This document shows positions 6,643 to 40,472 of a stretch of 64,000 nucleotides of DNA, piece after piece. A program made the translations under genes and the position numbers. Numbering within the stretch: the stretch's first letter is position 1; each line of letters begins with the position of its first letter. The stretch spans positions 25,753,233 through 25,817,232 of the forward strand of contig OZ316892.1 of NCBI GenBank assembly GCA_973895155.1, given 5' to 3'. The DNA is from Marsupella aquatica. Taxonomy: Eukaryota; Plantae; Marchantiophyta. The notes below the pieces were generated by a model. It had not been told where the DNA came from and did not search any database. It saw only the letters and a list, made by a program, of their open reading frames with translations.

Positions 6643-6665
6643 ACACACACACACACACACACACA
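6643..6665. repeat. (AC)n microsatellite
   Basis: acacacacacacacacacacaca. Confidence 0.9.
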
Positions 6666-7687: not shown

Positions 7688-7771
7688 ATATAAGGTCAGG
7701 ATTGCACTAGGTTTTTATATGAGGTCAGGATTGCACTAAGTTATTATATGAGGTCAGGATTGCACTAAGTT
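7688..7771. repeat. ~29-bp tandem repeat, 3 copies
   Basis: ATAT(A/G)AGGTCAGGATTGCACTA(A/G)GTT repeated three times. Confidence 0.9.
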
Positions 7772-10762: not shown

Positions 10763-13072
10763 GGATAGTGAAGCACCACTCGATATTCTACTATATTTTG
10801 ACAAAAGTCGCTAATTGCAAATGAGAATCCTGAAGGAGCTTATGGGAGGTTACCAGTGGTTACCCAACGTTTTTAATAATTGAGTAGTTATCAACCATGC
10901 ATTGAAAGCCATGGAAATGTTTCTTACCTACCAGGCTAACGATACATTCTCCTGAGTGATATTTGACTTTAAAGAAGTGAGGTAAAGTATGAGGACCATT
11001 AGCACTTAGCAGAGATAAACGACACAGCAAACGACTTGCAAATATAATTGCTGTGGTCTGGATTCAACGCATACATTGTCAAGGGGAGCATTTATGACAA
11101 TCCAGACTAAGAATACACAAGGACTGTAAATTATCAGTACGTTTGACTTGGACACCTTTACTTACTTCCTTTTGCATTCCTTTTGGAAAGCCATTACATT
11201 TTTTGAGGCACAAATTTGATTTGATTTATTAAATTAAAGTGTAGCAACAGCCCTTGACACATGCTGGCTTTTTCCTGGACATTGACATATTATCTTCACA
11301 ATAATATAGATTGGTAATTAACAGTGCGACACAGATTAAGGTCATGGGTTTGAGTTTGTGGACTTTGGATGAGTTTATTTTAAGGCACGGTCTCAGAACC
11401 AATGCCCCAGGCTTTATGTAGTACTGAAACCTTACACCCAGGCGTGTTCTATTCAACTGAAGCGTCCAGGGCCTTGTGTCTAAAAAAGTTTGAAGAAGAC
11501 TTCCTCGTACATAGGGTGTTATCGTTGACAAGGCCTTTTTATTTGAAGAATTGGGTTTTTGTTGTAGAATGCTTATTAGGACCACCTCCTCTTAAATTTT
11601 CTGATTGTGATGTGGCCCCTCACAAAGCTGTACATTTGAACACAATAAAGTGGCTGTCATATAATTAGAAAATAATCATTTTGTGGTTGGAAATGCTATT
11701 GTTTCCCATTTTTGAATAAAACCCCTGGGTCTTGTTGTAGGGGTAGATGATGGCATTCGACCTTCATAGTTTGCCCAGGTCCTCCATCACATGTCTGAGA
11801 GTCCAGTTCCTCGGTTACTCAGACTCCCTTTGTTGGGATGCCTGTTATTCCCATTTTTCAATAGCACACTCAGGTACATGACATGTGTTCTCCTTAATGT
11901 TGGATGAAAAGTTGCCAACGGTCGAAAAGAACAGCTTCATTCCCCTAAAATGGTATCCTCAATTTATTTGGACTGATTAAATCACGCAAAGCTGAGAAGT
12001 CATTATTATGAGAGTCTGAATGCCGTTTGCGTTATGTCCGCATTACTGCTTTGACTGGAACAAGTTGAAACTCTACTTATCCTCATTCAGCTTCATCCAC
12101 AGTGCATTTGGTTAAGGTTGGCTCCAATACATTCAATCACCATTGCGTCATTCACTTATCCACATGCCCACTAGCACGTATCAGAGTAGAAGGATCCCTT
12201 CACAAACTTCGGCGATGGTATGTCACCTTCGCCAGGTAGATTGCCACAGTCAATTATATCACACCAGCAATCCATCCACATTCGGATGACGCTCGCAAAT
12301 AGTGTAAACATGAACTGACTGGTACAACCAATTTATGAACCTCTCCATCTTGCTTTGCCCTGCATCCTCAATATCAGCAGGTCATACTTTGACCTACTTA
12401 GAGGAGGATTTATTTTTAGAATGCGTCATACAAAGGGCCCCACAATTCTCAGGTATTTGTTATAAGCCACTACAATTACAGAGAGAATTCTCTCACTACC
12501 CATCGGAACAATTCAGTTGCTCTAAACTTCAACTCTTCGGGAAAAAAATACAATTCGCAGCGAGGTCATTTTCGTAACTGGCCTCACCATAAAATAATGA
12601 ATGTTTACAATGACGAATCAGAATTGGTGTCGAAAACGGGACAAATTGCAAGCAGGCACTTCCCCACTGCACACATTCAACAGCATAAGACACTGTTAGG
12701 ATAGACTTGGCACATAATACGTTTGTCCTTGGAAGGACTACCAAAGATCTGAATCACACCAAACCAAACCAAACCAAACCAAACAAAACCAAAGTTATGA
12801 CAAAAGAATGTCCCTCAGCACATGATGCCTTTTTCATCATGTGCTTGCATGCAGGTCAACACAAAAAGATCACCGCCACGCCAACCAATGGAAGGGGGCA
12901 ATGAAACTCTAGTTTTACTGTGCAAGCTCAGATTACTAAACTGCTCATCATCGGGACAAACAACAGGAAGTCCGCTACCCTTTACATCCCCATGAAAACA
13001 AATGTGAAAGCTAATCTTGCTCTGCCACTCTTAAGACCCACGGACCTGTGCCATCTCCTGACGGTAGAGGTC

Positions 13073-16000
13073 TCAGAAGTTCAAGAGAATCTTCTCTTTT
13101 GGAACACCCTCTGCCAAAAGAAGTTCAGTCACATCCTGCACAGACGGCACAAATCTCAATGTCAGCCGACCGCAGCGTTGGCAAGCCCATGTACCTGAAA
13201 AAATATCAATTTAAATTGAATACAGAGCCCCCAAAAGGAGATTTCGTACTGTAAAGTTCCGTCACAAACCCAGTCTTGCCTTCCGAGAGAAACACAGGAA
13301 GGCAAGTCGGACTACTCATGGCTAAGCAAACATTTGGAGACTAATCCCTTTTTCAGTTGCGGCATTCCTCCAGACTACACCTCCCATCGGTAAACGCCAA
13401 ACCCACAAAGAACAATTCCCTTCAGCTACCCTCGCTCTATATACGAACCTTACGAAATACGGGTTCAGATAAAATTCAGAAAACAAACAGCCCTACTGAC
13501 GGCGACCCATTGGAGCTTCGTAGATTCGGACCCAACACTTCACATTAGATATGAAAAGAGAGGGTGTGAAATGCACGAACCTGGGCCATTCCCTTATGCC
13601 CACACAGCAGGGCACCGGTCTGTCCTCCATTGCCAATACCAGTAGCCTTGGAAAAGAAAGCCTACACAAGCAAACGTCTTGTAAAACAATCACACAAGAA
13701 CAGCTGAACACAACGCCAAGAGACGAAAGCCTCTGTTCAAGCAAGAACTGCCTTTCAAGTCTTCATAAAACCAAGGATTTTTTATACAGCAAGGATGTTT
13801 GTCTCAAAACAAATCTCGGAAATACCTGGACATAGCCTTGTGCCCCATTCCAATCTGAATCAGGTTGGGACAGAACAGGGACAACTTTAACACCTGAGGC
13901 TTCCCAGTCCTTGAATTTCTCCTGAGAAGATTACATAAAGCGGTGAGAACGACACGTCCATATCTAACACATGGTAATCGATGTGGTAAACACTTGAAAG
14001 AAGACTAGCATTCAATGGCTCAACCTCAGGATCATGACAGACTCGCCATTAACACAATTAGAGGTCCCTTGGTAATAGCAGCCATATGACATGCTCGTAT
14101 CTGAATTGCATAATGCTGCCTCAATGAGTTTGCATATTACAATTCATGACACATTACAATATACATGGTATTGCCCCCACGATGCCCCTGATATCATGGA
14201 TTGATCACCCCCGTGGTTTATCCAATTTAAAGGGTGCTTTCCCAATGTTTGTAAACTGTCGAACTTCTGATAATAGAAAAATCGCTTAACAGTTGAATTT
14301 GATAGTGTTAAGGTCCAGTAAGTTATTGTAACTAGAAGATTCAAAACATGTGTGCTGCGAGAATAATTATATAAATTGTATTTTTCCGATGAAGCACAAT
14401 TTGAGTGGCGTTCTTCCATATTCCATACAAAGCGGGAAAGTAGTAGGGGAAAAAATCCAGAAACCAAAGTAAGACAGCATCTAAATTCCAATGTTGAGAG
14501 GTAGACAGTCACTACAGAAGCAAGTAACGCAGCTGTCACTTGGAACAAAAAAGAGATTGCATGACCGGTTGGAAATTCCTTTCTTGAAAAAGGAGATGGA
14601 CAGTAAGGCACACCTGATAAGCCATCCTTTCAAGATTCCTTGCACCGTAGTACAGCCTCACATCAGACCTCTTGTCCGCTTCGAACCCTGCTTCTATGAG
14701 TGATCGAATTGGACTGTCCTACATCATTCCAAAATCACTGTTAGGCATTTCATTTACAAAGGAGTGCACTCCGGAAAAGTGTGCGAAATTTACGAATTAC
14801 TATCAGGAAAATAACTCCATTAATGGTGCTAAACAAACCTGATACCCGAGCCAGTGGCAAATAGCAGAACCGTCTGGTGCTCATCGGCGGGCTCCAGCTG
14901 CTCGACTTTAAATCCATTTCCCAAAACCTGACTAAGCTCCACTTTGTCGCCCTTTCCAAGACTGCATATGAGTCCAGCAGTGCTCCCCTCCACTCTAGGG
15001 TCCTTGATCAGAAATTCCAACCGCCCTTCCCTAGCCAACTTTGGTGGAGACGCGATTGCCAAAAACGCAGGCTTCGTATTCCCTACTTTGACCTGCCAGG
15101 CACGAAAAACGAAAGCGATGAGGCCACCATTCTTAATGACGGGCTGTTTGGGCATGGAAACAAAGATTGCTGCCGAATCTGTTTTGCACCCTCTTTAGAT
15201 CTGCTCTAGTGCAGAGAAAGCCTGAAAGTGGATAAAATACCCATCAGCAAAATTCCTTTCATCTAACTTTTAAAGCGCTGGATTTATCCTACTGTAATTA
15301 TACTCCGCCCTGCACTGCACTCCCTCGGTGGCAATCATTCCACCAGGAAAAATCAGGGAAGGTTAACCGTCTACGCAATTTGTTTTCTCATAACGCATTC
15401 TGACATGGCAACGAAATTGAATATCGGATCCGAAGACTGCCACAAGTATAATCTAATGGTTCCAGAGATATTTCTCAAATTTCAATTCTTTGGTACCTAT
15501 GTCGCAACACACTACAGACCAATAACCAAACTACATTGCATAAACCTGATAAACATTCGCCGGAAGAAAGTAACACCATGTCTCGATCTTCCTCCAACGA
15601 CGTGTTCTCGTTCAAAACAAAAGCGAAAACAAAGACAAATCCACACCCAATCTTCACAACAAGTGAACAAGTCTTCGGCCGTTCTTCTCAAAATGAGGAT
15701 ATTCAGAAGGATTTGAGACAAACATGAGACCCGGCCCTCATTTTCCCCTCACCTGAACAAACTGCCCTGGCTTGACATGCCCTTCAATGAGTTCGGGGTT
15801 ATCACTAATATCCAACACAACGTGAAACAAACTCTCTGCCGCTTTCTCAACCACAGCAACTGGCGAATTCGCCCACAGCACCTCCTGCTTCCAGACTGAC
15901 CTAATTACTGCAGACCCCGTCCTGGAGGAGGACGACGGCGACGATGGGGATGGCCCCTTCCGGGACAGCCTCTGCATCTGCAAGCTCGAAGATCGCCTCA

Positions 16001-16298
16001 AGGCACGGAACACTGGTCCGAATCGGGTCCCGGCCGCTCCCATGAAGGGAGGGGAGGAAGACGAGCGGGGCGATGGCAGAACCGAAGATGAAACCAGACG
16101 CACGCGCGCAAGAGGTGCTGAGGAAGCCACACATGAAGACGAGTAGCCAGCCTCAGACGCGAACGATCCTCCTCCCGCCGCAGTGCTGCACGAGCAACGC
16201 ATCGACGGAGTAGAAGCAACAGCAGCTGACGATGCTCCGACTCCAACTCCGACTCCAACTCCAACTCCTCCTCCGCGCAGGACCGCAGCAGCAGCCAT
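13073..16298 (-). CDS. Plastid FAD/NAD(P)-binding oxidoreductase (fruit protein pKIWI502-like, FNR-like family), 6 exons
   Basis: Exons 16298-15753, 15092-14839, 14713-14614, 13921-13826, 13661-13581, 13135-13073, all GT-AG and in frame. Ser/Ala/Arg-rich transit peptide; motifs PGQFVQ, FLAIASPP, LLFATGSGISPIRSLIE, LYYGARN, GYVQ, LCGHKGM, KILLNF-stop. Confidence 0.92.
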
Positions 16299-16534
16299 GC
16301 TCAATCAATCCACGGACCGTCACTTAGATTTCTTGCGGGGAGCTCTCTCGATTTCTCCTCCGTGCTTCTCCTCTCCACTGTGGGCGAGATTCTGATTGCC
16401 TGCGTGCCACGAAGCTCTTGCTTGCACGACGCCCACTCTCACTCACTCACCCACTCACTCACTCACCCACTCTCACCGCTAATAAGAATAGGAAGAGGAA
16501 GGAACGAGAGTGGTGCAGCAGCACAGCAGAGAAC

Positions 16535-18058: not shown

Positions 18059-18382
18059 TGTAGAGGTTAACTCAGTCTTGGATTGAACTATGGTTAGTAT
18101 ATTAACTAGGGTTAGAGTAAACACTAGTTGAAGAGATTGGTCCTTATCTCTTCAACTTGTATGTGGTGAGAGAACACACAAGAGAGTTCTCAAGAGAGAA
18201 CACAGTGATACAACAAGAGATGAGAGTTTGAAGAGATGGGAGCTATGGTGATGCTTGAGTAGACACATAACCGTTAATAAAGTTTGGTCTTCTTGTGGAC
18301 GTAGCCAACCTTGAGGCGAACCACGTAACTATTGAGCACGTGTATGTTTGGAGTGTATTTCCTGATCTGATTTCTCCCCACA
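18059..18382 (+). repeat. 5' LTR
   Basis: TGTAGAGG...CCCCACA; I count 8 substitutions versus the 3' LTR. Confidence 0.97.
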
Positions 18383-18384
18383 AT

Positions 18385-18396
18385 TGGTATCAGAGC
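18385..18396 (+). promoter_or_regulatory. Primer-binding site (initiator tRNA-Met type)
   Basis: TGGTATCAGAGC 2 nt after the 5' LTR. Confidence 0.93.
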
Positions 18397-19549
18397 TCAG
18401 ATTTTTTCAGTCGATTAGGAACTCCATAGAACTTGCTTCAAGCAAAGCGAACAACGGATGATTTCCTCTTCGAAGCGGAGCTATTGAAAGAAGATCGGAC
18501 TCAATCTTCTCACAAGTGTGGAGCACATAACCAGGGGCTCATTTTAGTGAAGCAATGAAGGCCTGAGGTCAGAAACAGAAACAATTGTAAGTGACGGTTT
18601 CAATTTACGTTATCGGGCAAGAGATAAGGTCAATTTCTCAGATCAGTCTTTTTGATTGGTCTATCGGGACTTGAAACTGAGATATGCTTGAGCGCCTTGT
18701 CTTTCTAGACGTTTTGATATCAACATCGTTGAATTCCGTCAAACGGTTGAGAAGCAATCTTAATTTCAATTATCATTTTTTGAGCTCGAAATTTTGGCTA
18801 TGGCGGATAACTTAATATCAGCCACTTTCACCTAATTGTTTCTCCCTCATTACTCCACCGTTTTGCACGTTCTTTATATTGATCTTGATGCCCTCGAAGT
18901 CTAGTTTCTGAATCTGAAATCAGAATTAGATTTCATCAAAGACTGAGACGGGTTTGAGTGAATCCGCCGAGGGGTATTTTCTGCCGCGAGTAGTTGCGAC
19001 TTGCGCGGGCGCGCGAGGAGGTCGAAAAGTTCGAGGAGGCCTTTCTAGGGCTCGACAGGGCTCGGGCAGGGGGAAGTGCCCCCTGTGAAGTCCCCCACAG
19101 GGGCTGTACAAGGGCGGACGGAATTTCCCGAAAAGATTCTTTTCCAGAGGCTTAAATTTTTACCGAATGTCAAAGATTTTGAGCGGCAAATAAAATTGGA
19201 TCAACTTCAACTTTTGGAGAGGCGTACTTGGGGAAGCTAGGCAAGTATTGGTGCGTTTGATTTTGAAAAAGTACACTAGTGGAATCTTTGGCATAAGAGA
19301 TTCCCTCGAGGGGTAATTATTTCATCTTTTACCCCCCTCCGATCGGAGTAAAAATTCTCGGCACTCGAGAGTCCATTTGACAAACCGTTTTCAGAATTCA
19401 GAGCGTTACCTTGTGGGCTACACATAGGAGTGATCAGTTTCAAAATTCACCAACTTTCATTTTTGGCCTTATTTTCACACCCACATCTGAGCATTCGACG
19501 TTTATTTCTTGTCGAAAGGCAACTCCACACTACATTTGGCATTCCAGCG

Positions 19550-21780
19550 ATGGCGACTACTAGGATTGGAGGTCAAAGGTTTGAGATGGAAAAATTTGAT
19601 GGTCGGATGGACTATACAATGTGGGAACGTAACGTGGGGGATGCACTTAGGGCGATGGGCCTAGGCAAGGTACTAAGATCTCAACCCAAGGAGATGGAAG
19701 ATGATGATTGGCATGATCTCCAAGATCAAGCGGTAACTATTGTTGGCATGTACCTGAAAAACAATGTGAAGAAGCAGTTCGAGGAAAAAGTAACACAAAC
19801 GGTGACGGACTTGTTTCAAGCATTGCGCAACAAGTACTACAAGAAGGAGATGTCAAACCGAATGTATGCAAGCCTGAAGCTCATGCAATTCAAAATGGCT
19901 GATGGAGTCAAGATTCAAGATCATATCGATCAGTTCAATGATCTTGTGGTTGACCTAGAGAATTTGGGGAAGCATTTGAGCGAAGAAAAGAAAGCCTTAC
20001 AACTCTTGAGCTCACTACCACCTTCGTACCAATCTTTGTCTCGAGTTCTTCTATTCCGTGATAAGACAACTATATCCTACAATGATGTGGTGAGTGCCAT
20101 GTTGACCGATGACATGCAGTCTAAGCTGGTTTCTTCAGCTCATCCTACCTCAACCTCATCATCAACAATACTGTTGGTAGAAAGAGGCAAATCAAGGGAG
20201 CCATCTCATGAAAACAAAAGGTTTAACCCACTTCCCATGGAGCGAGGAAGGTTCCACGACCGATCTTTTGGTAGGAGGAGGTTTAGATCCAGATCTAGAT
20301 CTCGATCCAACCATCCAAGTCTACTCGTGAGATAAAGTGTTGGAAGTGTGACAAAGTGGGTCACATGAAGAAGGATTGTCGCGTCAAAGACACATTCAAG
20401 GAAGTTGCCGGTTCTTCAGCCCAAGTAGTTGTTCGAGAAGAGGATAGTGAAGGATTTGCATTGTGTACCACTTCCCAAGTTAAGGATTGTCAATGGATCT
20501 TGGATTCCGCTTGCTCGTATCACATGTGCTATATGCGTGAACTTTTCTCATCCTACACTCCTATCAATAGATCTGTTTTGATGGGAAATAATCATTCTTG
20601 CAAAGTTTTAGGGATTGGATCCGTAAAGATTCAACTACCCGGTGGCAAGTACTGTACTCTATCAAATGTCAGACACATTCCAAAAATGTGTAAGAATTTG
20701 ATTTCTCTTGGCTACTTGGATGCGAAGGGTTATCAATGGAGTGCAACTGATGGGGTGTTAACAGTCACGCATGGATCAACTGAAGTTCTTATTGGCAAGA
20801 GAAAAAGAAACGTCTATGTCTTGGAAGGCACCACACTTCTTGCCAAAGTCAATTTGGTCACATCTCAGGAGGAGAAAATCAATTTATGGCATGCTCGGCT
20901 TGGTCACATGAGTGAAAAAAGTTTGGAAATCCTACACAAGCGACATCTCCTACCAGGATTGCAAGCATGCAAGTTGAGTTTTTGTGATCATTGCATTGTC
21001 GGCAAGAAAACAAGAACTCCATTTCCGACTGCCATTCATCATTCTAAAGTTGTACTTGAGTATATTCATTCCGATGTGTGGGATCCTGCTCCGGTTTCTT
21101 CACATTCAGGCAAACAATACTATGTATCGTTTATCGATGATTGCTCAAGGTTTGTTTGGATTTATTTCATTGCCCATAAGTTTGAAGTGTTTTCCATCTT
21201 CAAACAATGGGTAGCTCAAGTTGAGACACAGATTGCAAAGAATGTGAGATATCTACGATCAGATAATGGTGATGAATACACCTCTGGCGAGTTCAACACG
21301 TATTGTGCAAATAAAAGAATTACTCACCATCTCACAACTGTGTACACTCCTGAGCAAAATGGTGTTGCTGAGCGACTCAGCCGCACATTGTTGGAGCGAG
21401 CAAGGAGCATGTTGAGCCACTCTAAATTGCCACAAATTTTTTGGGCGGAAGTTGTCAACATAGCTGCTTATCTAGTAAATCTCTCTCATAGTCGGGCAAT
21501 TACTTACAAAACCCCCTTTGAGCTATGGCACAATCGACTTGCTGATTATTCAAAGCTTAGAGTTTTTGGTTGTGAAGCATATGCACATGTTTCTAGCAAC
21601 AATAGGACTAAGCTAGATCCTCGAGCCCAGAAATGCATTTTTCTTGGTTATCAGCTTGACATTAAAGGATATCGATTGTGGGATCCAGTTGATTGCAAGT
21701 TACTTGTTAGTCGGGATGTATCCTTCAATGAAGACAAATCATTGAAGGAGGGGGAGATAGATCAATTCCCTACTACTAAC
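19550..21780 (+). pseudogene. Copia gag-protease-integrase; frameshift near 20330; cut by the insertion at 21781
   Basis: MEKFDG gag start; zinc knuckle CWKCDKVGHMKKDC; protease WILDSACSYHM; integrase HARLGH..CDHC, HSDVW, RSDNGDEY, NGVAER. Confidence 0.93.
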
Positions 21781-22327
21781 CTCGGGGGTCTCACTCCGCG
21801 AAAATCTCATATCACGTGCAACGAAGTATAGGGTCCGTTAATTGGGTTTCTCGGAAGACTTAAGAAGATTTGTGTAAGAACAATAGGGCCAACTTTATAT
21901 GTTGGACAACTTGTAAGAATAATAGGGATATTAATATTTTTGACTTTGTAGATGGAAGGCATACAAAGAAGTTAGGGGGTCTTTGTGTCGGACTATGTAA
22001 AGTACACGTGTCACTATGTCATTGGTACACGTGGCACACATAACATTCCCAATATATTTTCCTAATTTTTCTAATATGTTAACATGGCAAGAATTTGAGA
22101 GTGATCTGGTTTTATGGGGACTCACGTTTAGGGTTTGACCGGGATTAAGTTTGAAATTTTTCTGTTTAACGTGTCTCGTTTACCTCAATTGGCCCTTGTC
22201 AGTCCCTCCCGTGTCGTTTCCCTCCACTATCCCTTTGGCCCCACCCGCTCTTTGCCTCAACAGAGTCTCTTTTGTTTGTACCTTGCAGCAAATGGCCTAA
22301 ACGGGGTCTAAACCAGTTGTGCTCCTG

Positions 22328-23160
22328 CTTGGAGTGAAGGTCGGATCGAGCGAGAGTGTGCTCTCGACTGCACTTGGAGTGAAGGTCGGATCGAGCGAGA
22401 GTGTGCTCTCGACTACACTGTTGCTGGAGTGAAGGATCGACTCCTGTTGTGCTCTCGACTGCACTGCTGCTGCGGCTGGAGTGAAGGATCGAGCTGCGTT
22501 GCTGCTACGGCTGGAGTGAAGGATCGAGCTGCGGCTGGAGTGAAGGATCGAGCTGCGGCTGGAGTGAAGGATCGAGCTGCGTTGCTGCTGCGGCTGGAGT
22601 GAAGGATCAAGCAAGATTTCTCGGAGAAGGATCGAGCTGCGTTGCTGCTGCGGCTGGAGTGAAAGATCAAGCAAGAGTTCTCGGCGAAGGATCGAGCGAA
22701 GGAGTGAAGGGGAGAGCGAGAGTGAAGGGGAGAGCGAGAGTTCTCGGCGAAGGATCGAGCGAAGGATCGAGTGAAGCGCTGCTACTTGGAGTGAAGGGGA
22801 GAGCGAGAGTGTTGCGCTCTCGGCTGTGCTGTTGCCGTTGCTGCTTGAAGTGAAGGATCGACCAAGAGTTCCTGGCTGCGCTGCTGTTTAGAGTGAAGGG
22901 GAGAGCGAGACATCTCAGCTGCGCTGCTGCTTAGAGTGAAGGGGAGAGCGAGACTTCTCAGTTGCGTGCGCTGATTAGAGTGAAGGAGAGAGCGAGACTT
23001 CTCAGTTGCGTGTGCTGATTAGAGTGAAGGGGAGAGCGACACTTTGCAGCTGCGCTGCTGCTTGAAGTGAACCCGGGAGTGAAGGGGAGAGCGAGACTTT
23101 GTAGCTGCGCTGCTGCTTGAAGTGAACCCGGGAGTGAAGGATCGAGCAAGAGTGTTGCGC
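22328..23160. repeat. Subterminal variable-period tandem array built on GAGTGAAGG
   Basis: Many copies of (G)GAGTGAAGGATCGAG and AGAGTGAAGGGGAGAGCGAG separated by GCTGC spacers. Confidence 0.9.
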
Positions 23161-23433
23161 TCCGGGAGGTGGGTGTCGAGAGTGTTGCATTGCTGCTTTC
23201 TAAAACGGGAGCTGCTAGCTTGCTGAAACGGGAGGTGGCTACTGCAGGGAGTGTTGCGATATCTCAAACCGGAGTGCCAGGATTGGAGCTGCATTGCTGC
23301 GTTGCTCAATCGGGAGGTAGGCGCTGCCTACTTTGACGATCGTACTTGCTTGCTTGCTACTATTTGACGCCCAAATCTATCACGCATGGCACACCTAGAG
23401 TCGATCTGGTAGCGGTCATAGACGAGGAAGCAC

Positions 23434-23540
23434 CTGATCTGCCCGTTTAGCTTTTCAGCTATAAAATTCATGTTCTGAGCTCCGTGAATGGCGATAAGCT
23501 CTTTGAGTATTTTGTCCTCCAGAGCTCGCCATGCCCTCGC
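23434..23540 (-). pseudogene. Captured R2R3-MYB exon fragment (first repeat)
   Basis: AWRALEDKILKELIAIHGAQNMNFIAEKLNG; removing 1 nt restores NGRSG followed by a GT donor. Confidence 0.65.
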
Positions 23541-24387
23541 AGATAAGGTTTGGAGCCACTGCTGAGATCCAGCTCCAACTTCCCAGCCGAATACTAGCTC
23601 AGTATTGTCGTCATTTGTCTCGACGTTGTCCATACTCATCTCTCCTTCTGTGTCCGCATCGACGACTTGACGCACATGTTTTTTGGATGCATCGTTAGAG
23701 TAACCGCGAGTACAGGTCTCCAATGATTGCACTTGCCATGATTGACCACCTTACATGATCTCCATCCATGGGCTGGACCCCAGGAAAAAAATCATGTAAC
23801 TTGACTTCTGTCGTCCCCCACACACCCGCACAAATCTGGTTCTCTATTACATGCCTTGGTGTCCCGTTGGCTGGTTCCTGCAATTTTCTTTAAGTCATCT
23901 AGAAGAGAAGACTTCTTTAAGTGTTTACTCAGCCAGGGGGGACCACAGCCTCCAGCCATACTGGGTGGCGGGCCTGGTCAAGACGTGGATGACGCTCGTG
24001 CTTGATTTTAAATTCTCTTTTGTTTCTCAAGCTTCTGGGCAAGGGCATTACCATTCTGGATTCTGAACTTGATCCTATTCAGGTTAGCTATTCAGGTCTG
24101 TTGAGCGATTGGGTTATTATTTTATTGCTGTAGTAACATGCATGGCCAATTGGTTGTCTTCATGTAATGGGAAGTTTTTGAAACTTAGAAATTGAATGGT
24201 GGTTTCAATTTTGTTCACAGGTTGCAAAAGGAATTGTAGAGGTTGTCATCAGCGCTTGCAGCAGTGAGCACCAACACTTGCGGTGAAGCAGTTTGCTAGA
24301 ACACATAGTGTACCTAGTGAATTGTAAGTTGCCTGTCATTGCACGTCTAATCGTCTGGCCATTCACCGAGTATAAAAAAATAGTGCC

Positions 24388-24786
24388 ATGGCTATATTGG
24401 GCATTACATTAGAAGCGAATTATGAGAAGCTCCTTCTGCAGCATCCAGATGAATGCTGCTGGTGTGAACCTTGTGTCAAGTGCAGGGTTGGTGATGGGAA
24501 TTTTGAATGGTTCCATTGCTTCTGCTTGAAAATGCGTGGAAGGCTTGTTACTAGGACATACATGGGAAAGCATGGCAAAGTTGTCACACGTCGTTGGAAG
24601 TGCTCTTGTATAAGGCCAACCATTTGGCCTCAAAATGAGTGTCTTTTACGCAAGATTGTCATCCCGGACACGCTTGACATTGTAGTCCCTGATAGTATTC
24701 CACATTCAACTGAGCTTGATATTGTAGCCCCAGATAGTATATCAGATCAAGCTAAGGTTACAACCCATGGATGCTTGACATTGTAG
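24388..24786 (+). CDS. Small Cys-rich ORF, possible divergent PHD/zinc finger
   Basis: CCWCEPCVKC..EWFHCFCL..WKCSC resembles PHD W-F-H-x2-C and W-x-C motifs. Confidence 0.35.
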   Translation: MAILGITLEANYEKLLLQHPDECCWCEPCVKCRVGDGNFEWFHCFCLKMRGRLVTRTYMGKHGKVVTRRWKCSCIRPTIWPQNECLLRKIVIPDTLDIVVPDSIPHSTELDIVAPDSISDQAKVTTHGCLTL

Positions 24787-25102
24787 TCCTTGATAGTACA
24801 TGGATGCGTTGTTCATATATGACTAGGCCTTTGTTTGCAAGGCTGCAATTGTACCATCCATGATATATGAGAATATTTTTCATTCCCATTATGTGGCAAA
24901 GTTTTGCAAGCTGGCATTGTATTTATGTATGTCTTGGTTGGTGGGTGTTCAGGTTGCACTGTGTAGTTGACTTCATCTGGGAGGGAGGTTTGCAGATCAT
25001 TGGAGCAGGTGCTATGATTAACCTTATCTTTGTCTATGGATTGCTCACTATCATCATGTCCCCCTCATATGTGATGTGCTTTGTGATGATTGCAGTTGAA
25101 CC

Positions 25103-25777
25103 ATGCCGACAAGGACTTCAAACATAAAGAAAGCAACACAGTCCTCTGACAGAGGAGCCTCTTTGGAAGAGGTATTGCGTATTCCGTTGTTCTCTGAGCA
25201 AGAGATTCTACAAACTAGCCCTCATGTTTGTGCAATTTGTGAGCATGGTGGGAAGTTGGTAATTTGTGATGGGCCATGTCACAGGCAATTTCATTATGTG
25301 GTTGGAGATGAAGCCCCTAATGACTCTTGCCCCTGTGTAGTCCTTCCCCTCCATCATGGAGGGAAGCCATGGTTTTGCCCAAATTGTAACCAGGACCAGG
25401 CCATGTGTTATGGGTGCCGCACTGTGGGACCGTCACCTACAATTGTGCGAAAATGCTCTGATCGTTTTTGTGTACGATTTTATTGCTTTGGGTGTTTGGT
25501 AGCTGATGCAAAGTCCTGCCCACTGCATACATGTGTGACATGTTATCAGAGTCTTGAGGGTCAGATGGTCAAGAACATGGTACAATGTCTACGATGTCCA
25601 AATGCCTGGCATACAGATTGTCTCCAGATGATCAAAAGCAAAGGGTTCGCTCATGATAGGGACATCTGGGACCATGAAGCACATGGACAACAGCGACAGA
25701 TGTTTTATTGCCCCCGTCATCCTATTGATCCACACCTCAAGACTCCAATCAGGGACCACATTTCATGGCTCCAATGA
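25103..25777 (+). CDS. Stand-alone EDM2/NSD-type multi-PHD finger protein (224 aa) carried by the transposon
   Basis: CAICEHGGKLVICDGPCHRQFH, WFCPNC..CYGC, CPLHTCVTC, CLRCPNAWHTDCL, YCPRHPIDPHLKTPIRDHI; intact intronless ORF preceded by a TTGCAG acceptor. Confidence 0.85.
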   Translation: MPTRTSNIKKATQSSDRGASLEEVLRIPLFSEQEILQTSPHVCAICEHGGKLVICDGPCHRQFHYVVGDEAPNDSCPCVVLPLHHGGKPWFCPNCNQDQAMCYGCRTVGPSPTIVRKCSDRFCVRFYCFGCLVADAKSCPLHTCVTCYQSLEGQMVKNMVQCLRCPNAWHTDCLQMIKSKGFAHDRDIWDHEAHGQQRQMFYCPRHPIDPHLKTPIRDHISWLQ

Positions 25778-26272
25778 TCTGAATAATGAACAAACCTATT
25801 ACTTAGGTTTCAACGTCTTAGTGGGGTATGAGCAAGGCACATACTTAAGGTGCATCATGGGTGGTAGTACCCAATTTTATTAGTGTTGACATTTTGTCAT
25901 AATTAAGGTCACTAATAGTGCTGCATTTTGATGAGCAGAAGCACTAAACTTCGGGAATTGTTAGAAAAGCAGGCGAAAAGGATATTTTGTCCAAAGATAT
26001 TTTATCCAACTTTAGCGGTATATCATGATTTTCACTGAATACATTTGCATGTATGATGGATTGCATTATAAAGTGTTTTGGCCTATTAGCACTTCTATTG
26101 TTAAATGTATGCTGACATTATGTACATTACATGAGAATGTGTATGTTGTCATTGCATCTCTTGAAGATCCTAATGTGTTTCCCTTGTGTGTATTTCAAAT
26201 GTATTTGTGCAGGTCTTTCTGTTATCAACTCCAAAAGCAATGGTGCTATGCATGTTCTAGATTTGTATTGCA

Positions 26273-29200
26273 ATGGCAGCCCCTAAACCCAACTCTGTTA
26301 AATTAATACGCAAAGTTGGGGATGACAAGGCTGATTTACCAATTTGTGTTTTGTCATTCAAAGAAGGACACACCCTACATGATTTTAGGGCTCGTATTGC
26401 CTCTACTCTAGACTTTGACTTTGATTTTTGGGATGAGAGACTTCCTGGTCGAGTGAAACTTGTACATGAGAAATTAATTGATCTGTCTGAGCTGGATGGA
26501 AGAGTTATTGTTGTACAACAAGAACTTGGAGATGGTGGGAGGATCCCACCAGTACCCTGTCATCCTTGCACTCCTGCATCATTGGGTCCAAATACTGGGA
26601 CACCACAACTGGGGCCAACGGCACTAGCACCCTCCCCTGTAAGGGCTTCTTTTGAGTCACAATTGATGGGAGTAATAGGACTCGAGCTATTGCTCAGGCT
26701 ATGTTCCAATTTGGGGGCCGTCAAGTTGCTCATTGTTTTGCACGAAACTTGACAGCCCCTAGCCTTGTGACCCTAAAACGTGATAGAGCAAAACTCACAC
26801 CTTTTCGAACCGGGTTACGGAAGGAAACCTTTCAGGAGATTGCTAGAGTGTTGTCTGCTGCAAAGCACTCATTGGGCATTGAGGGGGATGTGCCTGTTAT
26901 CTTTGCTGAGGATGAAACAAGGATCAAAGAACGCCCTAGGTAATTGGAACTGGACATTTTTCCAATTGTTTTTTTAATGACTTTACAAGTAGCACTTGGC
27001 TGGAATTGCTGTGATATTGAAAAATTGCATGTCTGTGTTTCAGGTGGGAGGCAAAGTATGATACTCTCATTGGTTTCTGTGGACCTTCAGAGCAGCATGT
27101 ATGCTCCTATGGTTTGGAAATTCTAGTTGGTGAAGGTGATGAGGGGTATGATAAAATTGTAAGTACATTTGAACAATGCCCCAAGTGCATGTATGCCCGA
27201 GTTGTGATTGTGAATCCTCTGCATGAGTCCTTACCTAAATTGGCTGTGTGTGCACTTCCAACTTGTAATAAGTTCACAGCTTCTTGGGTACGAGAGCATT
27301 GGGTCCAGTTAAAGGCTTTTTGGGATGAATATTGTAGAGCTATGGTAGGCCCTTTGCTTGGACATGCTAGTGATGGTGATGCACGTCGCCGAAAGCTGAT
27401 GCTGGAAGATTACAGAGGGCAGAATGGATCATACCCAAGGTACGGAGTTGGGTGGGAAGGGTGGACATACTCTGTTTCAATTCTACCAAATGGAGATTTG
27501 TATGGCTTTGGTGACCAAGACCAACCTCATAATGGGAAAAAGATGATAAACCCCTTAGACAGAGTGTCTTCTTTACTGGTGCTAGGAGATCAACATGCAT
27601 CTTTATCTTATGTAGCTAATGTCTACAATCATTATCCAATTCATGAACATGGCATGGCTTGGGATGATGTGAATAGGACTGACCGGCAGAATTGGGCAGG
27701 TCCACAACGAATAGCAGCAAGAAGAGTGCAGCAATGTCTGAAAGATATGTATGAGAGGAGAGATGTACAACATGAACGAAGTTTAGGAACTCAGTTGTAC
27801 TTGGAGATTTGTGCAGATTACTTAGATATTTTCTTTTCTCCAGTTCATGATTTGAGGTCCCGTATTGTGTTAGCATCCAAGGTTTCATTCTTTCTACGTT
27901 TGTGGAGATTGTGGTTGAGGTTTGGTGACCATTCAGTGGGTGGGAACTTTGTAGCACACACTGAGAAAGACATGATGTCTATTCAAGCTTTTCATGATGT
28001 TAACATGTCATGTCATTTCATTGTGCTGTTAATTTGTGCCTTTCGAGATAAGTTCCCACATCTAGGTGTTCCCTTCCACTTGCTAGGTTCAGATTGTTGT
28101 GAGATTTTCTTCAGCAAGGTAGGAGGCATGAGTGGCCATGAGCGGAATTATGATTTTGGCTCTCTATTGGATAGTGCTGTTGGACTGAACCGGCTTGCTG
28201 CCCTAGAATATGGACCAGAAGGCTTGAAGATAGGTCGTTCACATAAGAAACAAGATCATGTATGGGGGAAGATTCATCCTATAGGGGAAGGGGAGGAAGC
28301 ACCAAATCTACTTGACTATTCTCTCATTGAGACTAATGAATTAGTGGTTGCAGCCCTTAAAGAAGGTTTTGTTGCTGCTAAGGATCTTATGCATCAATTG
28401 CAGATGTCTCCACGAAGTTCCTTACCAGCAGCTAGAAAGAGATGGTGGACATGTCCTTGGGTTGTGGAAAGTGAGACCTGGCCACTAGAGGTGGTTCTGA
28501 AGGAAGCAATTGTTTGCAATGATTCTGAGGAGCAAGTAGAGCACCAACCACCAGACATAGGTCCTCGCCCAACTGGAGATTTTCATGAATTGGAAGATCC
28601 TGAGGATGATCTGAATAGAATAGATGCATGGTTAACAGAACCAGATCCCATTGTTGTTCCTGAGATGCATTCAGATGATGTACACAGAGATGATATACAG
28701 TTTGATGTAGACCCCTCAGATGAGCTTGAGACATTAGGTCATGAAGTTCGGCATGTGTTTGGATCAGTTGTCCATGCTGTAACTAATGTACAGAATCGTA
28801 CCAAGGTAGTGCCTACTGTTACTTATGAAGGCAAGGTGATTTACAAATCCACTCTGGTAAGCCAGTTGGTAGGAAATCCGCATTTGTCAAAAGATAGGCT
28901 GACAAGGGTGAAACAAGTGCTATACTATAGTACTGGCAAGAGAAAAGTGCAAGAAGTCAATCCTAACTCATGTTTTGTTGATGTTGGCACTGATTGTGCA
29001 ATTGCATTTGAGTCTGATGATAGTCCTGCTCCAAGTACTAGATCTGGAAAAAGAAAGGGAGGAAAGAATAAGGTTGTGGTGGAGGCAATCTCAGCAGGTA
29101 AGAAATATTTTTGGTTGGGTCGGATTGTCCAAATGAGACAGAAGTATGGCAGTAGGTGGGGCAATTGTCGGTCACCAATTGATTTGATGGATAGGCCAAC

Positions 29201-29435
29201 TCCACTTGCAGGGCAATCAGGTAACATTTGTGAACTGTTGTTAAATTGGTATAGTCCTATTGGTAAGAGCAAAAGTGAATTCAGATATGATACCACTGAT
29301 TTGAAATGGATGGATATTGAAATGGTCATTGCTAGTGTTAGTTTAACCATGAAAGAAGGGGTTATGGATCGTATCTATGTGTTGGATCCAATAGATAGAC
29401 GTGCTTTGGATCAGTATCTTCAAACAATGGTATGA
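26273..29435 (+). CDS. P-element-like DDE transposase; intron 26940-27043; frame break near 26655-26670
   Basis: Splicing gives 876 aa from ATG 26701: FAEDETRIKERPR|WEAKYDTLIGFCG, GHASDGD, DQPHNGKKMINPL, DRQNWAGPQRI, GSDCCEIFFSKVGG. The upstream ORF 26273-26752 is probably the N-terminus in another frame. Confidence 0.8.
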
Positions 29436-29447
29436 ATATCATGTTAC

Positions 29448-29528
29448 TGTTTAGTTTTTGAGAGTCTGTATATATGTTTTATTTTGTTGTTTAGTTTTTG
29501 AGAGTCTGTATATATGTTTTATTTTGTT
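29448..29528. repeat. 39-bp T-rich tandem duplication after the transposase stop
   Basis: TGTTTAGTTTTTGAGAGTCTGTATATATGTTTTATTTTG x2. Confidence 0.9.
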
Positions 29529-29561
29529 AATATTAGTGGGTGTAGTGGGATAGGATAGGGG

Positions 29562-29621
29562 GTGACGGATTGGCAACTTGAGATCCTTTCTCAATTAGGG
29601 GTTCAATTCCCCTCCGTCACA
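29562..29621 (+). ncRNA. D-armless tRNA-like structure (60 nt)
   Basis: Acceptor GTGACGG/CCGTCAC; stem TTGAG-ATCCTTT-CTCAA; T arm AGGGG-TTCAATT-CCCCT; discriminator A. Confidence 0.55.
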
Positions 29622-30090
29622 TGTTACATCTCTCAACATAAGTTTTAAATGGAGTATGGATGGAGCATGGGATTGGTGATCAATGGGTGGAATGGATTAT
29701 TTATGTTGTGACCTTAAAGGCCATCCCACTTATGCACGTAAGGTTTATATTGGGATGACCTTTTAGGTACACAATATAAATGATGCATTAAAATGATCAA
29801 AGTTTAAGGTCGACAAAGGTGCAAGAACTGTTGCAGGGCGTGCCATGTCTGACATACGACTTCACAAGGTACTGACATAGACTTATCTTTTCTTTCTAGG
29901 CATTTTATATTGATATGTGACACTTTACTTCACAAATTATAGGGGCAATACAATTTGGATTTTAGACTCTTAGAAGAAAGAAAGAGGGAGGAAAAAAAAA
30001 TTTCAACTTAATAAGTATGGGGGTCTAGGCATGAAAACGTCGCAGGTGATGGGGGGGTCCTCCATATAGTGAGACCCCCGAGCTACTAAC

Positions 30091-31904
30091 AAAGTGCAAT
30101 CTCCTCCTCTAGAGGATTTAAGAGGAGAGGATGTGTCAAATGAAAGAATATGTTGACACTACTGTAAGGCAAAGCACACTACAATCAGATCAGCCAGAGT
30201 CTTCAGTGCGAAGAGGAACTCGTAAATGTCAAGCCCGGGAAAGGTATGGAACTTGGCTTCCTTCTGATCATGTGGATTTGGATGAAGAATCTATTGATGC
30301 ATTGGTGACAGAAGATGGAGATCCATCCTCATTTCAAGAGGTCCTAGCTTCTATGGAGAAGCAACAATGGCAGACGGCGATGCGCATGGAAATGAAATCA
30401 CTTCATGATAACAAGACTTGGGAACTCACATGTCTACCTAGTGACAAGCAGGCTGTTGACAGCAAGTGGGTGTATAGGAAGAAAGATGGACCCACGGAGG
30501 ATGCTGAGAAGATATTTAAGGCTCGGTTGGTAGCCAAGGGTTTTACTCAACAGAAAGGTATAGACTACAATGAGGTTTTTTCACCCGTAGCAAAGTATTC
30601 AACAATACGTTTGCTATGTGCTCTTGTAGTTTTATTTGATCTAGTTTTAGATCAAATGGATGTTGTCACGACATTCTTATATGGATCGTTGGATGAGATG
30701 ATTTACATGAGGCAACCAGAGGGTTTTATGCAAAAGGGCAAGGAAAATTTGGTATGCAGGTTGTTAAAATCCTTGTATGGATTAAAGCAGAGCCCAAGGC
30801 AGTGGAACAAGCGTTTTGATGAATTTTTGAAATCGCTTGGATTTGTGCAAAGCGTGTACAATCCATGTGTTTACATCAGGCGTGTAAACAACACAGGTTT
30901 TAAGCTTCATCCTTGTACTTTATGTGGATGACATGCTCATTGCAGCACAGGATAGGGGCAAAGTTGATAAGCTTAAGGCCCAACTTAGTTCTGAGTTTAA
31001 GATGAAGGATTTGGGCACAGCCAAGAGGATCCTAGGCATGAAGATTGTCAGGGATGTTAACAAAGCCAAACTTTGGCTGACACAGAAAAGATATGCAGAG
31101 AAGGTACTCTCAAAATTCAACATGGCAGATGCTAAGGCTGTGAGTGTTCCTTTGGCAAGGCATTTCAATATTTCTGCAGCATTTTGTCCATCGGATGTGA
31201 CAGAAAAAGGTTTGATGTCCAAAGTTCCTTATGAAAGTGTTGTGGGTAGTTTAATGTATCTCATGGTATGCACCCGACCAGACATAGCTTATGCCGTTAG
31301 CAAGGTAAGCAGATATATGGCAAATCCAGGAAAAGTTCATTGGGAAGCAGTGAAATGGATTTTGCGCTACATCAGAGGTTCCACTAAGAAGGGTTTATTG
31401 TTTGATGCAAGTTCAAACAATATGAAAGTGCTTCAAGGTTATGTGGATGCAGACTACGCAGGTGATCTGGATAAGAGAAGATCGACAACTGGATATGTAT
31501 TTACACTTGCTGGTGGATGCATTAGTTGGAAGTCTACTCTCCAAAAGTGTGTTGCAAAGTCTACTATGGATGCCGAGTATGTAGCGGCAACAGAAGCAGC
31601 ATCAGAGACCATTTGGTGGAAAAAGCTTGTCACGGAGATGGGCTTATCACAAGATTGTGTCTATCTTCATTGTGACAGTCAAAGTGCAATTTACACTGCC
31701 AAGAATCAGGTGATGGATGGCAGGGTAAAACACATTGATGTCCGCTATCATTTCATCCGACAGGCATTATCGGATGATGAGTTTGAGCTTGTCAAGATTG
31801 ATGGAAAGCTTAATCCAGCGGATGCTTTTACCAAAGTATTAGACTCCAATAGTTTTTCAAGGCATTGTAAATATAGAGTTAACCAAGAAAATGTCTCTAT
31901 ATGA
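30091..31904 (+). pseudogene. Copia reverse transcriptase and RNase H; frameshifts near 30143 and 30905
   Basis: KARLVAKG, QMDV, LYGLKQSPRQW, (LY)VDDMLI, DADYAGD, DAEYVA, CDSQSA, NPADAFTK. Confidence 0.93.
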
Positions 31905-32053
31905 GTACTCCATCCGATGGCTTATCGGCTACGGCTTAGTTCTAGTTAACCCTTGCATTAGGGGGAGGGTCTTTTGGCCCTACTGTCTTGAACTTCCCGC
32001 AGAGGAACTTGTAAGGAAAAGACAATGTTATGAACCCTCCCAAGACGTGAGTC

Positions 32054-32062
32054 AAGGGGGAG
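32054..32062 (+). promoter_or_regulatory. Polypurine tract
   Basis: AAGGGGGAG just before the 3' LTR. Confidence 0.85.
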
Positions 32063-32064
32063 TT

Positions 32065-32388
32065 TGTAGAGGTTAACTCAGTCTTGGGTTGAATTATGGT
32101 TAGTATATTAACTAGGGTTAGAGTAAACCCTAGTTGAAGAGATTGGTCCTTATCTCTTCAACTTGTATGTGGTGAGAGAACACACAAGAGAGTTCTCAAG
32201 AGAGAACACAATGATACAGCAAGAGATGAGAGCTTGAAGAGATGGGAGCTATGGTGATGCTTGAGTAGACACATAACCGTTAATAAAGTTTGGTCTTCTC
32301 GTGGACGTAGCCAACCTTGAAGCGAACCACGTAACTATTGAGCACGTGTATGTTTGGAGTGTATTTCCTGATCTGATTTCTCCCCACA
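32065..32388 (+). repeat. 3' LTR
   Basis: 324-bp near-identical copy of 18059-18382. Confidence 0.97.
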
Positions 32389-34675
32389 AAAGGTTGAGTT
32401 ACATCTACCGAGGCAGTACTAACCCACATACAAAATGGGAGTCAAGTTAGTAAAGAAATTTTGTTAGGGGAGATCTTAGTAAATTCCTTTGGGTTTATTT
32501 GTTGCTAGATGTTATATGCAGGAAGACAATTATAAGTTCACAAGCAAAAATGTATTGCGCCCTGGCGGTGGGCTTTTTTATTTTCTTACAACCCCTCTAG
32601 TCCCCTGCCTGCCTTTTCCAAGTCTTGCAACAAAGGGTTTCACTAGACCAGCTAAGCAACTCAGTTGGCAGGTTGTGGCCCTTATTTGAACTTAACTGTA
32701 ACCGCAATTGGCACACTAGTTTTCAGTGGCTCCTCACACGCTCTACCGAGACTCATCCTGCCTCAATCCCCCTTTTCTACCTGCACCCCAAAGTTCAGTT
32801 AGAGAATCAATACCAACACCCTCCATCAGGGCCTGACAGGCTTTTGACATTGTTTGTAGGAAGCAAATGTTTTTTCTTCTTGCACCAGTTCCTAGTATCC
32901 TGATATTTTTCCAGGATAGGTCACGGGAGGATATGAGACTGGCAAATAGAGCGTTATCTGCGAGCAACAAAACATTTTTGCCAGGCTTTACTATTCCTCC
33001 GTACCCTTCACAATATATGCTGCAACCATCATGTGCTTTGAGACAGGAGCAAGCCTGAATGGCAACAACCGGTGCATGACCATATTCTGTTTATGTGTGT
33101 GCCGGGGGGGGGGGGGGGGACAGCTCAATGATCCCAGCCTCCTTCGGTGTCCCTGAAAGGTCCATCTACCAGCCCGCAAATTGTAATCCTTTGTGGATGG
33201 TCTTACCAAGGTAACTATTGTAGTCCGCAAATTGTAATCCTATTGTGAATGGTCCAGTTTACCAAGGTAACTATTGTAGGGGTCAGAACTATATACGGAA
33301 ACCGTGACAGTTTTGTAAATACAAAAACAATAGTGGCAGTATTGTAAATTCAAATATGTTTAGTGACAATGTACTTAAAAGTTGTATTAGATAACTATGA
33401 TTTGCAATAGGGGCTTTACAAAAAGTGACAGGTCACTTGTGCTTTATCATATGTGATTCACAGGTCCATGTAGATTGCCTCCTCACCCCAAGATGTGATC
33501 ACCAGTGCATTTATAGTATGGACATCAAGTTCATGCATGTTTTGCAAGAAAATTAAATATTTTTACATTTTGAACTAAACACAATGCTGCAATGAGATTA
33601 ACTAGATTTCATAGTTACTTTATAAACTTTATTCCACACCGATTTATCATGTTTTACATCAAAATGTTTATTCTTAAAACTAGCCCAACTACCTCTCCTT
33701 TGAACATGAATAGAGGTGAGGATTAGAAATTGTTGACCCTCAATGACAGCAGCTGACAAAGTGCTGGCTGTTTCACCTTAGCCCTCCACCCTCAATGACA
33801 CCAGCTGACCTCTTCACAGGCGGCCCCTACTCCACCGACTCTCTTCACTCTCTTCACAGACGGGCCTATTTTAAAATGCGGCGCACTACTCCTGGCACTA
33901 CTCCACCCCCATCCCTAATATGATTATTGCCCCCAAAGTCAGGTCTACACGCAGGCTTCAGTCTAGACAGGCCTTCAAAGTAGCTTCACATTGTGATTTG
34001 ATATAAAATGCCCATTCTATAGAAATGATGATAAAAAATATCCTATATGATCATCATTTTGACCAATATCCAGGGTTATTGTCGTCACATACATTTAGAG
34101 ACACCTTACATCATTTTGATGTATATACCATCCACAGCTCTATCCATCTACATAGGATTGGTGGGGCCCTAGAGTCACAGTCTAGAGTCTTCACTCTCGA
34201 AGCCTAGACCCAACTCTAGCTTGTGATGGCACTTTATAATATAAGATTTGGATCCTATGAAAGGGTAATCCTATGAAAGGGCAATCAAGCTAGTTTGTTT
34301 GAAAAGTGATCTCCCAAGTTGTCAGCTTGGATAGGATCCCAAACTGCTCTTTGTGTGAAAGTAAAGCTCTTTCTAGCTCTAAAGATGCACCTTCCTCTCA
34401 AATTCAGTACATCCCATTCAAGCATGGGAACCCTATCCCAGCAAAAGGTTTGGGATGGAGATCTCATCCAATTCTATAGGTCAAATTATATCCGAGCTTA
34501 TGACTTGCAATCCACCTGTGTTGGAAAGTAGAAACGCAACCCAACGTTTACATATCTCTCAAACGTTGCATTAAAATGAGCTCACAAATGACGATGGTGC
34601 TTGAAAATGCGTCTGTAAAGGCTGTCTCAACTCACTTATGAGTGCAAGACATGAATACTCAGCTAACAACTGCAA

Positions 34676-39416
<4,741 letters not shown>

Positions 39417-40472
39417 TGTAGGCTCGTTGGCTTCTCCTGTACCCTATCTCCCCTATGAGATTCGAACGCTTCGGGATCTCTTCCCGGGAATCGTGCCTCG
39501 TTTGCTCTTTGAAACAGGAGCTGCACCGAAAAATGCAGTTTCAATTTCACCAGACGAAAAAATGTCTCAGAAATGAAAAGGAAGCTGGACATGAATATCA
39601 TAACCCAACGACGAGAAAATCGATGGTTGCCGAATGCTGAATGATCTTTACTCTTTCCGTTTCTCCGTTTTGATTGTTAACAAATGCAAGCAAGGATCGA
39701 TCGAGGTGCGTGTGCAGCTACACCTTCGCGTTCACTCAAAGAGAGTACTGAGATAAAACAATCCCACTTCCACATCGCGTCGTGAGCCTCGCTGACACTC
39801 ACAAGTGTAACTTGGCGCCTCTACAGTGCTACACTTTATCGCACTCTTACACTTACACCTGTAAGCATCTCGTCACCAGTAGCTCGTTTCATGAGCCTCA
39901 CGTTTCGAACAAAAGCCAAATCTCGGCAGTGTCCAATATGCACCACAAGCTCGCCTCACTCCCTCCTCAGGGGCGAGCATGCCATTGCATAGCCCCTCAT
40001 CTACTCAATTCAATCAACTCAACCCAACTTAACTTCGGCACAGCAGTCAGCCGAGATATTCTGGCTGCTCCGCTTGCTTAGTGACAATTGCTCTCAGCGG
40101 TGGGCACTGACGATGTTGCAGATATGAAATGCCAGTGAGAGAATTCGTGTAAGATTCTGGCCGTCCTGAATTTGCTCGGAGCTAGAAACTGAGGCTGCGA
40201 TCGTCGTCTTCTCCTTCTTTGACACACTCAAGATCTTAGGAGGTTTTTGGGAAGATAGAGTGAAAGATTGATTGAATGAATGTAGGCATGAATGAATGAT
40301 TGATTTTAGAAGAAGTCGTGGACGCACTCATAGAATCTGACCTTCAAAGGCTCTGGAATGGACAGGTTGGAGTTGAGTGACAGGTAGCAAGCGTTGCAGT
40401 TCCCTTCTTGGTTCTCTCCAGAACTTCTGGAGCTAAGGAATAGAGCCAGAGCGGTAAGGACAGAGGAATAAA

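Follow-up and report, generated by a model that had tools for sequence, protein, structure and literature searches.

The capture of chromatin readers by transposable elements (TEs) is already known, as are TE anti-silencing genes. TE fusions recruit such readers, mostly with PHD and chromo domains, which in the available part of bioRxiv 10.1101/2021.11.30.470311 are contained in one gene model, whereas the cassette described here is a separate open reading frame (ORF) of the EDM2 type. A plant DNA transposon with an accessory gene is likewise represented by the Mutator-like VANDAL elements, whose gene VANC is accompanied by tandem motif arrays in non-coding DNA (PMC5735166, available text). 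According to the same text, VANC binds DNA motifs; no domain in common with our cassette was seen, and VANDAL belongs to another superfamily. Two-gene DNA transposons with an accessory protein are also known from the RAG1-RAG2-like elements, e.g., TransibSU and ProtoRAG (PMC4411706), and the PHD of RAG2 regulates the recombinase (PMC12337333; both as stated in the available portions of these articles). The RAG-like transposons differ from the present element in that they belong to the Transib superfamily, occur in animals, and contain a RAG2 PHD of a type unrelated to that of the cassette. RAG2 moreover has its own core domain.

With respect to the transposase, the closest described system is the P superfamily, including the Drosophila P element and THAP9, which shares the predicted fold, the terminal inverted repeats (TIRs), and the 8-bp target site duplication (TSD; one insertion here), a length reported for the P element in the available part of PMC3698922. 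The present element differs by a sequence identity of only 12-14%, an undetected THAP domain, another N-terminal domain, a BAH-like tail, an additional PHD gene, and a land-plant host, while the taxa listed in PMC3698922 include no plant. With respect to the reader, the closest system is EDM2 of Arabidopsis, which agrees with the cassette in the order of the ligands and in the C-terminal TP.RDH motif (31% identity). In contrast to EDM2, the cassette is transposon-borne, is devoid of the N-terminal DNMT1-RFD-like and ELP domains, and belongs to a separate, long-stemmed clade. PHD, EDM2, and P elements are absent from the main text of a 2026 review on gene capture (PMC13317346). Our literature search, whose scope did not extend to subscription papers, Repbase, or supplements on bioRxiv, yielded neither a transposon that encodes an EDM2-type reader in a gene of its own nor a land-plant P-like element that has a BAH-like tail.

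An EDM2-type PHD array in a nested DNA transposon

The window, i.e., the whole stretch of 64,000 nucleotides of Marsupella aquatica DNA that was analyzed, contains a P-element-like transposon within a copia retrotransposon (Table 1). An earlier sequence-only reading had placed the cassette in a DNA transposon nested in a frameshifted copia, and the TIRs, TSDs, and LTRs of this arrangement have now been located. The copia LTRs (18059-18382 and 32065-32388) show 8 differences in 324 positions and a 5-bp TSD. The copia lies between two host genes on the minus strand, one at 14144-16304, which we take to resemble a plastid-type FAD/NAD reductase, and one at 34676-39443, which is tRNA thiouridylase-like (Pfam PF20258); a third host gene at 59289-60020, also on the minus strand, presumably resembles a KRP-like cell-cycle inhibitor.

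Table 1. Coordinates of the transposon, its contents, and the surrounding copia in the window
Feature	Position	Strand	Remarks
Host copia LTR retrotransposon	18059..32388	+	Frameshifted; DNA transposon inserted between integrase and RT regions
P-element-like DNA transposon	21781..30082	+	8302 bp; TIRs, TSD, transposase
Left 15-bp TIR	21781..21795	+	Perfect; 8-bp TSD at 21773-21780
CpG-rich tandem array	22328..23140	+	17 copies of the 9-bp motif GAGTGAAGG
Degenerate Myb-like fragment	23328..23750	-	E 0.0036, below Pfam cut-off
Cys-rich open frame	24388..24786	+	No significant match
Stand-alone EDM2-type PHD-array ORF	25103..25777	+	224 aa; basic N-tail 1-40, zinc array 43-222
Transposase N-terminal domain	26273..26551	+	Homologous to N-termini of Riccia and long relatives
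Transposase exon, first catalytic Asp (AEDET)	26671..26939	+	Homology begins abruptly at about 26671
Predicted 104-nt GT-AG intron	26940..27043	+	Keeps transposase frame; homologs contiguous here
Main transposase exon	27044..29435	+	SDGD, DxxHNGKK, and SDCCE motifs
Predicted BAH-like C-terminal domain of transposase	28968..29432	+	VIA matches of the P0009 model
Right 15-bp TIR	30068..30082	-	Perfect; 8-bp TSD at 30083-30090

The same reading had recognized an intact EDM2-like ORF with a characteristic ending and without the other domains of EDM2, and all of this held up. The ORF extends from the ATG at 25103 to the TGA at 25775-25777 with 0 internal stops, is preceded by an in-frame stop two codons 5' of the ATG, and appears intronless as read from the DNA. 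In the BLASTP alignment with Arabidopsis EDM2 (P0258), which includes the C-terminal YC..H.ID..L.TP.RDH stretch, 67 of 213 residues are identical (E 1e-27); the alignment with NSD2 ends at residue 172, short of the ORF end. The order of the zinc ligands and the C-terminal YC..H...TP.RDH motif are common to the ORF and EDM2, with one ligand changed from His to Cys, and the top Atlas match is a Streptophyta PHD_NSD cluster (0.93). Neither the RFD-like N-terminal domain nor the methyltransferase-like ELP domain of EDM2 was found in the 224 aa. The earlier designation as a triple PHD is supported by matches to three NSD-type Pfam models (PHD-1st_NSD, PHD_NSD, and PHDvar_NSD), but it has to be refined, as the array of EDM2 is described as 2 1/2 atypical PHD repeats in the available text of PMC7529245. 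A predicted model of the array from 7 sequences was poor (pLDDT 44.6).

A terminal H-I-x-W motif is located at most nine residues from the end in 11 of 12 near-full-length relatives. Because the terminal stop is conserved, a fusion between the PHD ORF and the transposase was rejected. The cassette was present in 0 of 95 proteins of the transposase set, and the search for fusions among longer proteins retained 1 of 3076 candidates, a remodeler-like protein with a weak match.

Apart from these two genes, the element contains the CpG-rich tandem array, whose CpG observed/expected ratio (o/e) of 0.8-1.0 compares with 0.13-0.46 from position 23781 on. The Myb-like fragment, which had no match in the PDB, is not CpG-depleted (o/e 0.94) and possibly represents a separate capture. 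A faint ING-PHD-like EWFH motif (E 8.2) was noticed in the Cys-rich frame at 24388; its interpretation as a second PHD was rejected, given that this E value was the top match and the Atlas search remained blank.

A transposase with a predicted P-type fold and BAH-like tail

The sequence-only reading had overlooked that the transposase is P-element-like, with a predicted BAH-like C-terminus, and that it is likely internally deleted in the window copy. The window transposase matched neither a Pfam family nor a PDB sequence, and its alignment, used as a profile against the PDB sequences, gave 0 matches. Database searches recovered 66 relatives; most of those with a name are from Riccia, and one is from Adiantum. 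The AEDET, SDGD, and SDCCE acidic motifs are conserved among the aligned relatives. When 29 of the 36 aligned rows were placed in a quick tree (seven rows filled to less than 60% were left out), the window clade was sister to six Riccia proteins (support 99), which points to a liverwort or other seedless-plant host. The transposase scan of viral contigs had no match, and that of the prokaryote collection had a single one (L005, 176-1677, 39% identical) on a 2.1-kb contig of an archaeal MAG, which is likely a eukaryotic contamination; no cassette is located on this contig, which is too short.

Structural comparison was based on the predicted model of P0009 (pLDDT 82.7, pTM 0.84), a relative that is 46-49% identical to the window transposase. 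The top Foldseek match of this model was the Drosophila P-element transposase (6p5a; E 1.5e-7), and VIA aligned both over 344 residues with an rmsd of 3.0 and a Z score of 23.4, followed by the next entry with a Z of 8.6. From this relative, a P-type DDE fold is predicted for the transposase. We use the term P-like rather than canonical because a THAP domain was not detected with Pfam in the 39 alignment members or the long transposase relatives, and the respective region is deleted in the window copy. The C-terminus of P0009 (residues 672-810, about the last 135) matched ten BAH-containing VIA entries over 78-91 residues with rmsd values of 2.6-4.9 and Z scores of 5.4-6.5, i.e., below the tool threshold of about 8. 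BAH matches among the rows include DNMT1, EBS, ZMET2, DIM2, the ORC1b BAH-PHD, ORC1, MTA1, TNRC18, MET1, AIPP3, and PBRM1. Sequence searches for BAH homology of the transposase C-terminus gave no match, and the region is covered by 18 of the 36 aligned rows, from Riccia and unnamed relatives. The concordance of the structural matches predicts a BAH-like C-terminus, at Z scores below the safe level of the tool.

The N-terminal domain of the transposase is ubiquitin-like by appearance and is out of frame with the core in the window copy. In the long relatives, about 500 residues that are absent from the window element separate this domain from the core, and a contig with a depth of 526, which is identical to the window over 26671-27657, leaves it at 26671 for 143 letters. 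Both observations indicate that the window transposase is likely internally deleted by about 500 codons between 26551 and 26671. A simple intron linking the N-terminal domain to the core was rejected because homology extends 5' of the sole in-frame acceptor and because of the departure of the depth-526 contig at 26671.

A family-wide cassette in a young copy

Five sequencing runs contain the element, none of them recorded as RNA, and four were compared with the window. The depth of the PHD bin equals that of the transposase bins in run X1 (663 versus 613-841), run X2 (7042 versus 4663-10139), and run X3 (26668 versus 27716-40027), and these element depths, which according to the tool's own warning do not represent copy numbers, are tens to hundreds of times those of low-copy pieces. 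The cassette is therefore family-wide; its restriction to this one copy, a case raised by the earlier reading, was not found.

The window copy shows 0/987, 1/798, and 1/501 differences (≤0.2%) from high-depth contigs and is therefore very young, so that its intact frame is uninformative on selection; we regard this copy, with its likely internal deletion, as a passenger. The absence of stops, for which the earlier reading had considered either selection or a younger insertion, is explained by this youth. Contigs of runs X1 and X2 join position 22037 to 29847, thereby skipping 7809 bases, which suggests a short MITE-like derivative with both ends. A contig of run X2 joins the right end of the element at 30082 to copia RT sequence at 30921, a hint of a second nested insertion, but the joints could show copia flanks only, so that the junction at 30921 is biased toward copia. 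The landing in a copia, previously proposed as evidence of tethering, thus amounts to one event and one biased junction hint and no longer serves as such.

The distant relatives of the cassette bear on the question of whether it was acquired passively. The cassettes might be an unannotated, intronless host gene family whose constraint arose in the host and of which one member was recently picked up by the transposon family, and linkage to a transposase is indeed seen in the window's family only; none was found on the contigs of L001 (1.9 kb) and L002 (1.5 kb), both of which are too short. The element captures host pieces, as exemplified by the decayed Myb-like fragment inside, and the within-family variant counts are tiny. 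However, the annotated matches from Marchantia, Riccia, Calypogeia, and Ceratodon represent only longer or separate EDM2-like clades, and several relatives are broken (in-frame stop in L001, frameshift in L002). Genome gene names are attached to the annotated bryophyte EDM2-like proteins but to none of the stand-alone relatives looked up. The CpG depletion of the cassette (o/e 0.33 in the window, 0.34-0.35 in relatives) equals that of the transposase (0.24-0.34), unlike the Myb-like fragment, and compares with 0.77, 0.87, and, for the third, 0.43 in host exons. A diverged relative in run X5, aligned across the first finger, reaches a very high depth of 8000-16000 versus about 21 for low-copy pieces. 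These features are indirect signs that the distant relatives may also reside in transposons, and we regard a passive capture as unlikely. The X5 depth of the PHD bin was rejected as a record of a whole sister family, since the alignment is confined to about 50 bases at the first finger and 25651-25774 of the ORF remained uncovered; because of this short alignment, between-family dN/dS was not obtained from X5. Cassette scans of the viral and prokaryote collections had no match.

Age and constraint of the stand-alone cassettes

A word search identified six cassette relatives (213-304 aa, 44-82% identity), and a profile search over 1.84 billion representatives retrieved 518 matches at E 0.001, the best 150 of which were listed. 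The window cassette and fifteen other stand-alone relatives (16 rows) form one clade with an SH-aLRT of 100 and a stem of 1.71. In a cleaner-cut tree (44 rows, without animal NSD), 12 stand-alone rows were united with a support of 100/100 and a stem of 1.09 changes per site. This phylogeny, which the earlier reading had suggested for EDM2 and NSD PHDs, separates the stand-alone clade, together with the EDM2-like proteins, from 6 unnamed NSD-like rows (support 96/99). In the best tree, the clade is sister to ELP-less liverwort proteins, a relation that is unsupported (37/84). The short EDM2-like proteins of liverworts (Marchantia MARPO_0005s0286, Riccia, and Calypogeia) are the best-scoring named matches among those listed; they lack the ELP motif, mostly comprise 620-770 aa, and have an N-terminal domain. 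Six proteins (P0110, P0111, P0113, P0114, P0137, and P0151) constitute a liverwort clade (97/94) that ends after the PHD array, without the ELP motif. A basal position of the stand-alone clade outside the EDM2 radiation was not rejected (AU p 0.48), and an origin from seed-plant EDM2 was borderline rejected (AU p 0.0496).

The core zinc ligands are retained in nearly all stand-alone rows. The window ORF differs from L001 with a dN of 0.49 and at 23 of 30 four-fold sites, the latter of which corresponds to silent-site saturation in this one pair. The single long-stemmed clade, the conserved zinc ligands, and the saturated silent sites argue for an old and constrained cassette; neutral evolution, also considered earlier, was not found. 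Among the listed variants, five of six in the ORF and six of nine in the transposase are synonymous, the tables comprising the best-supported rows (best 40 of 1090). The nonsynonymous ORF variant at 25247 (Gly to Cys), which is surrounded by three indels with a net length of zero, was excluded from the dN comparison set. A chance figure of 0.012, based on few pre-filtered rows, applies to the four ORF variants that stem from near-identical copies.

Conserved His41, Cys128, and His191 have been gained in the stand-alone cassettes, finger 2 exhibits a change of His128 to Cys in 16 of 17 rows, and the acidic lead-in before finger 1 has been lost (charge -1 to +1 versus mostly -3 to -6 in host EDM2). 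Histone reading by the cassette may be altered or lost because of the two latter changes, and, with a stem of 1.1-1.7 changes per site in addition, the H3K9me2 specificity of EDM2 cannot be assumed. These deviations, together with the basic tail, would also agree with a zinc array that reads no histone mark and serves the transposition complex as a structural subunit binding DNA or the transposase, particularly as the long transposases scanned revealed neither a THAP domain nor another named DNA-binding domain. This purely structural role is nevertheless very unlikely in view of the entire EDM2 ligand pattern that has been retained, and the Cys/His-rich middle region of the long transposase relatives could bind DNA by itself.

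Proposed function of the cassette

The cassette likely helps the element to read host chromatin during movement or expression. Our preferred, albeit tentative, interpretation is that the PHD array is an accessory chromatin reader that most likely pairs with the BAH-like domain of the transposase. This partnership is favored because BAH and PHD cooperate in readers of the ORC1b/EBS type and the element supplies one of each; EBS presumably carries the PHD and ASI1 the BAH. In this view, an EDM2-like gene of a non-seed plant would have been captured long ago and trimmed to the reader, which would have an ATG of its own for expression, upstream of the transposase, and would bind both histone H3 tails and the transposase. 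The resulting split BAH-PHD reader would then bring the transposition complex to chromatin in a chosen state.

The tail of histone H3 starts with A-R-T-K. A comparable [AST]-R-x-K start is located at most four residues from a Met in 11 of 18 cassette N-termini (including three near-duplicates), six of which have M-[AT]-R-x-K; the N-terminus of the window protein itself lacks the Lys. H3-tail-like N-termini were noticed in the stand-alone proteins P0005, P0006, P0107, P0109, P0125, P0250, and L001, and several non-seed-plant EDM2-like proteins likewise begin with MAR. The H3-tail-like start is a possible decoy, and a nuclear localization signal is an equally simple reading of it.

Such a decoy would fit an anti-silencing or read-through function, a close rival of the BAH-partner reading that we nonetheless consider doubtful. 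The cassette would bind the silent chromatin of its own element or compete with EDM2 in ASI1-AIPP1-EDM2, resulting in full-length transposase RNA. EDM2, ASI1, and AIPP1 regulate heterochromatic intragenic TEs (PMC10241880 and PMC7529245, available parts), and the known role of EDM2 agrees with this function (PMC3632883, available part). The separate ORF upstream of the transposase resembles the VANC accessory genes of VANDALs, whose targets are tandem repeats according to the available text of PMC5735166, and the window copy contains a CpG-rich tandem array. However, VANC homology was not seen, the PHD families being the sole Pfam matches of the ORF, and the CpG-rich stretch may merely be a promoter. 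The array may not be family-wide because it is shallow in run X3 (3800-5900 versus 22000-40000 for PHD and transposase), although repeats also assemble poorly, and the Lys missing from the window's N-terminus weakens the decoy argument.

Returning to the BAH-partner reading, a more comprehensive scenario is possible but rather uncertain, namely that a P-like lineage of seedless plants took over the EDM2 reader module, split BAH and PHD between the transposase and an accessory protein, and thereby picks the chromatin for insertion or undoes silencing, with the H3-tail-like N-terminus often acting as a switch or decoy. The P-like transposase lineage of bryophytes and a fern may itself be undescribed. 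If functional, the cassette would represent a small natural test of the EDM2 PHD array acting alone and a candidate for the module that directs a cut-and-paste element to chromatin. The element would then be an example of a TE that turns a TE-tolerance factor of its host to its own ends.
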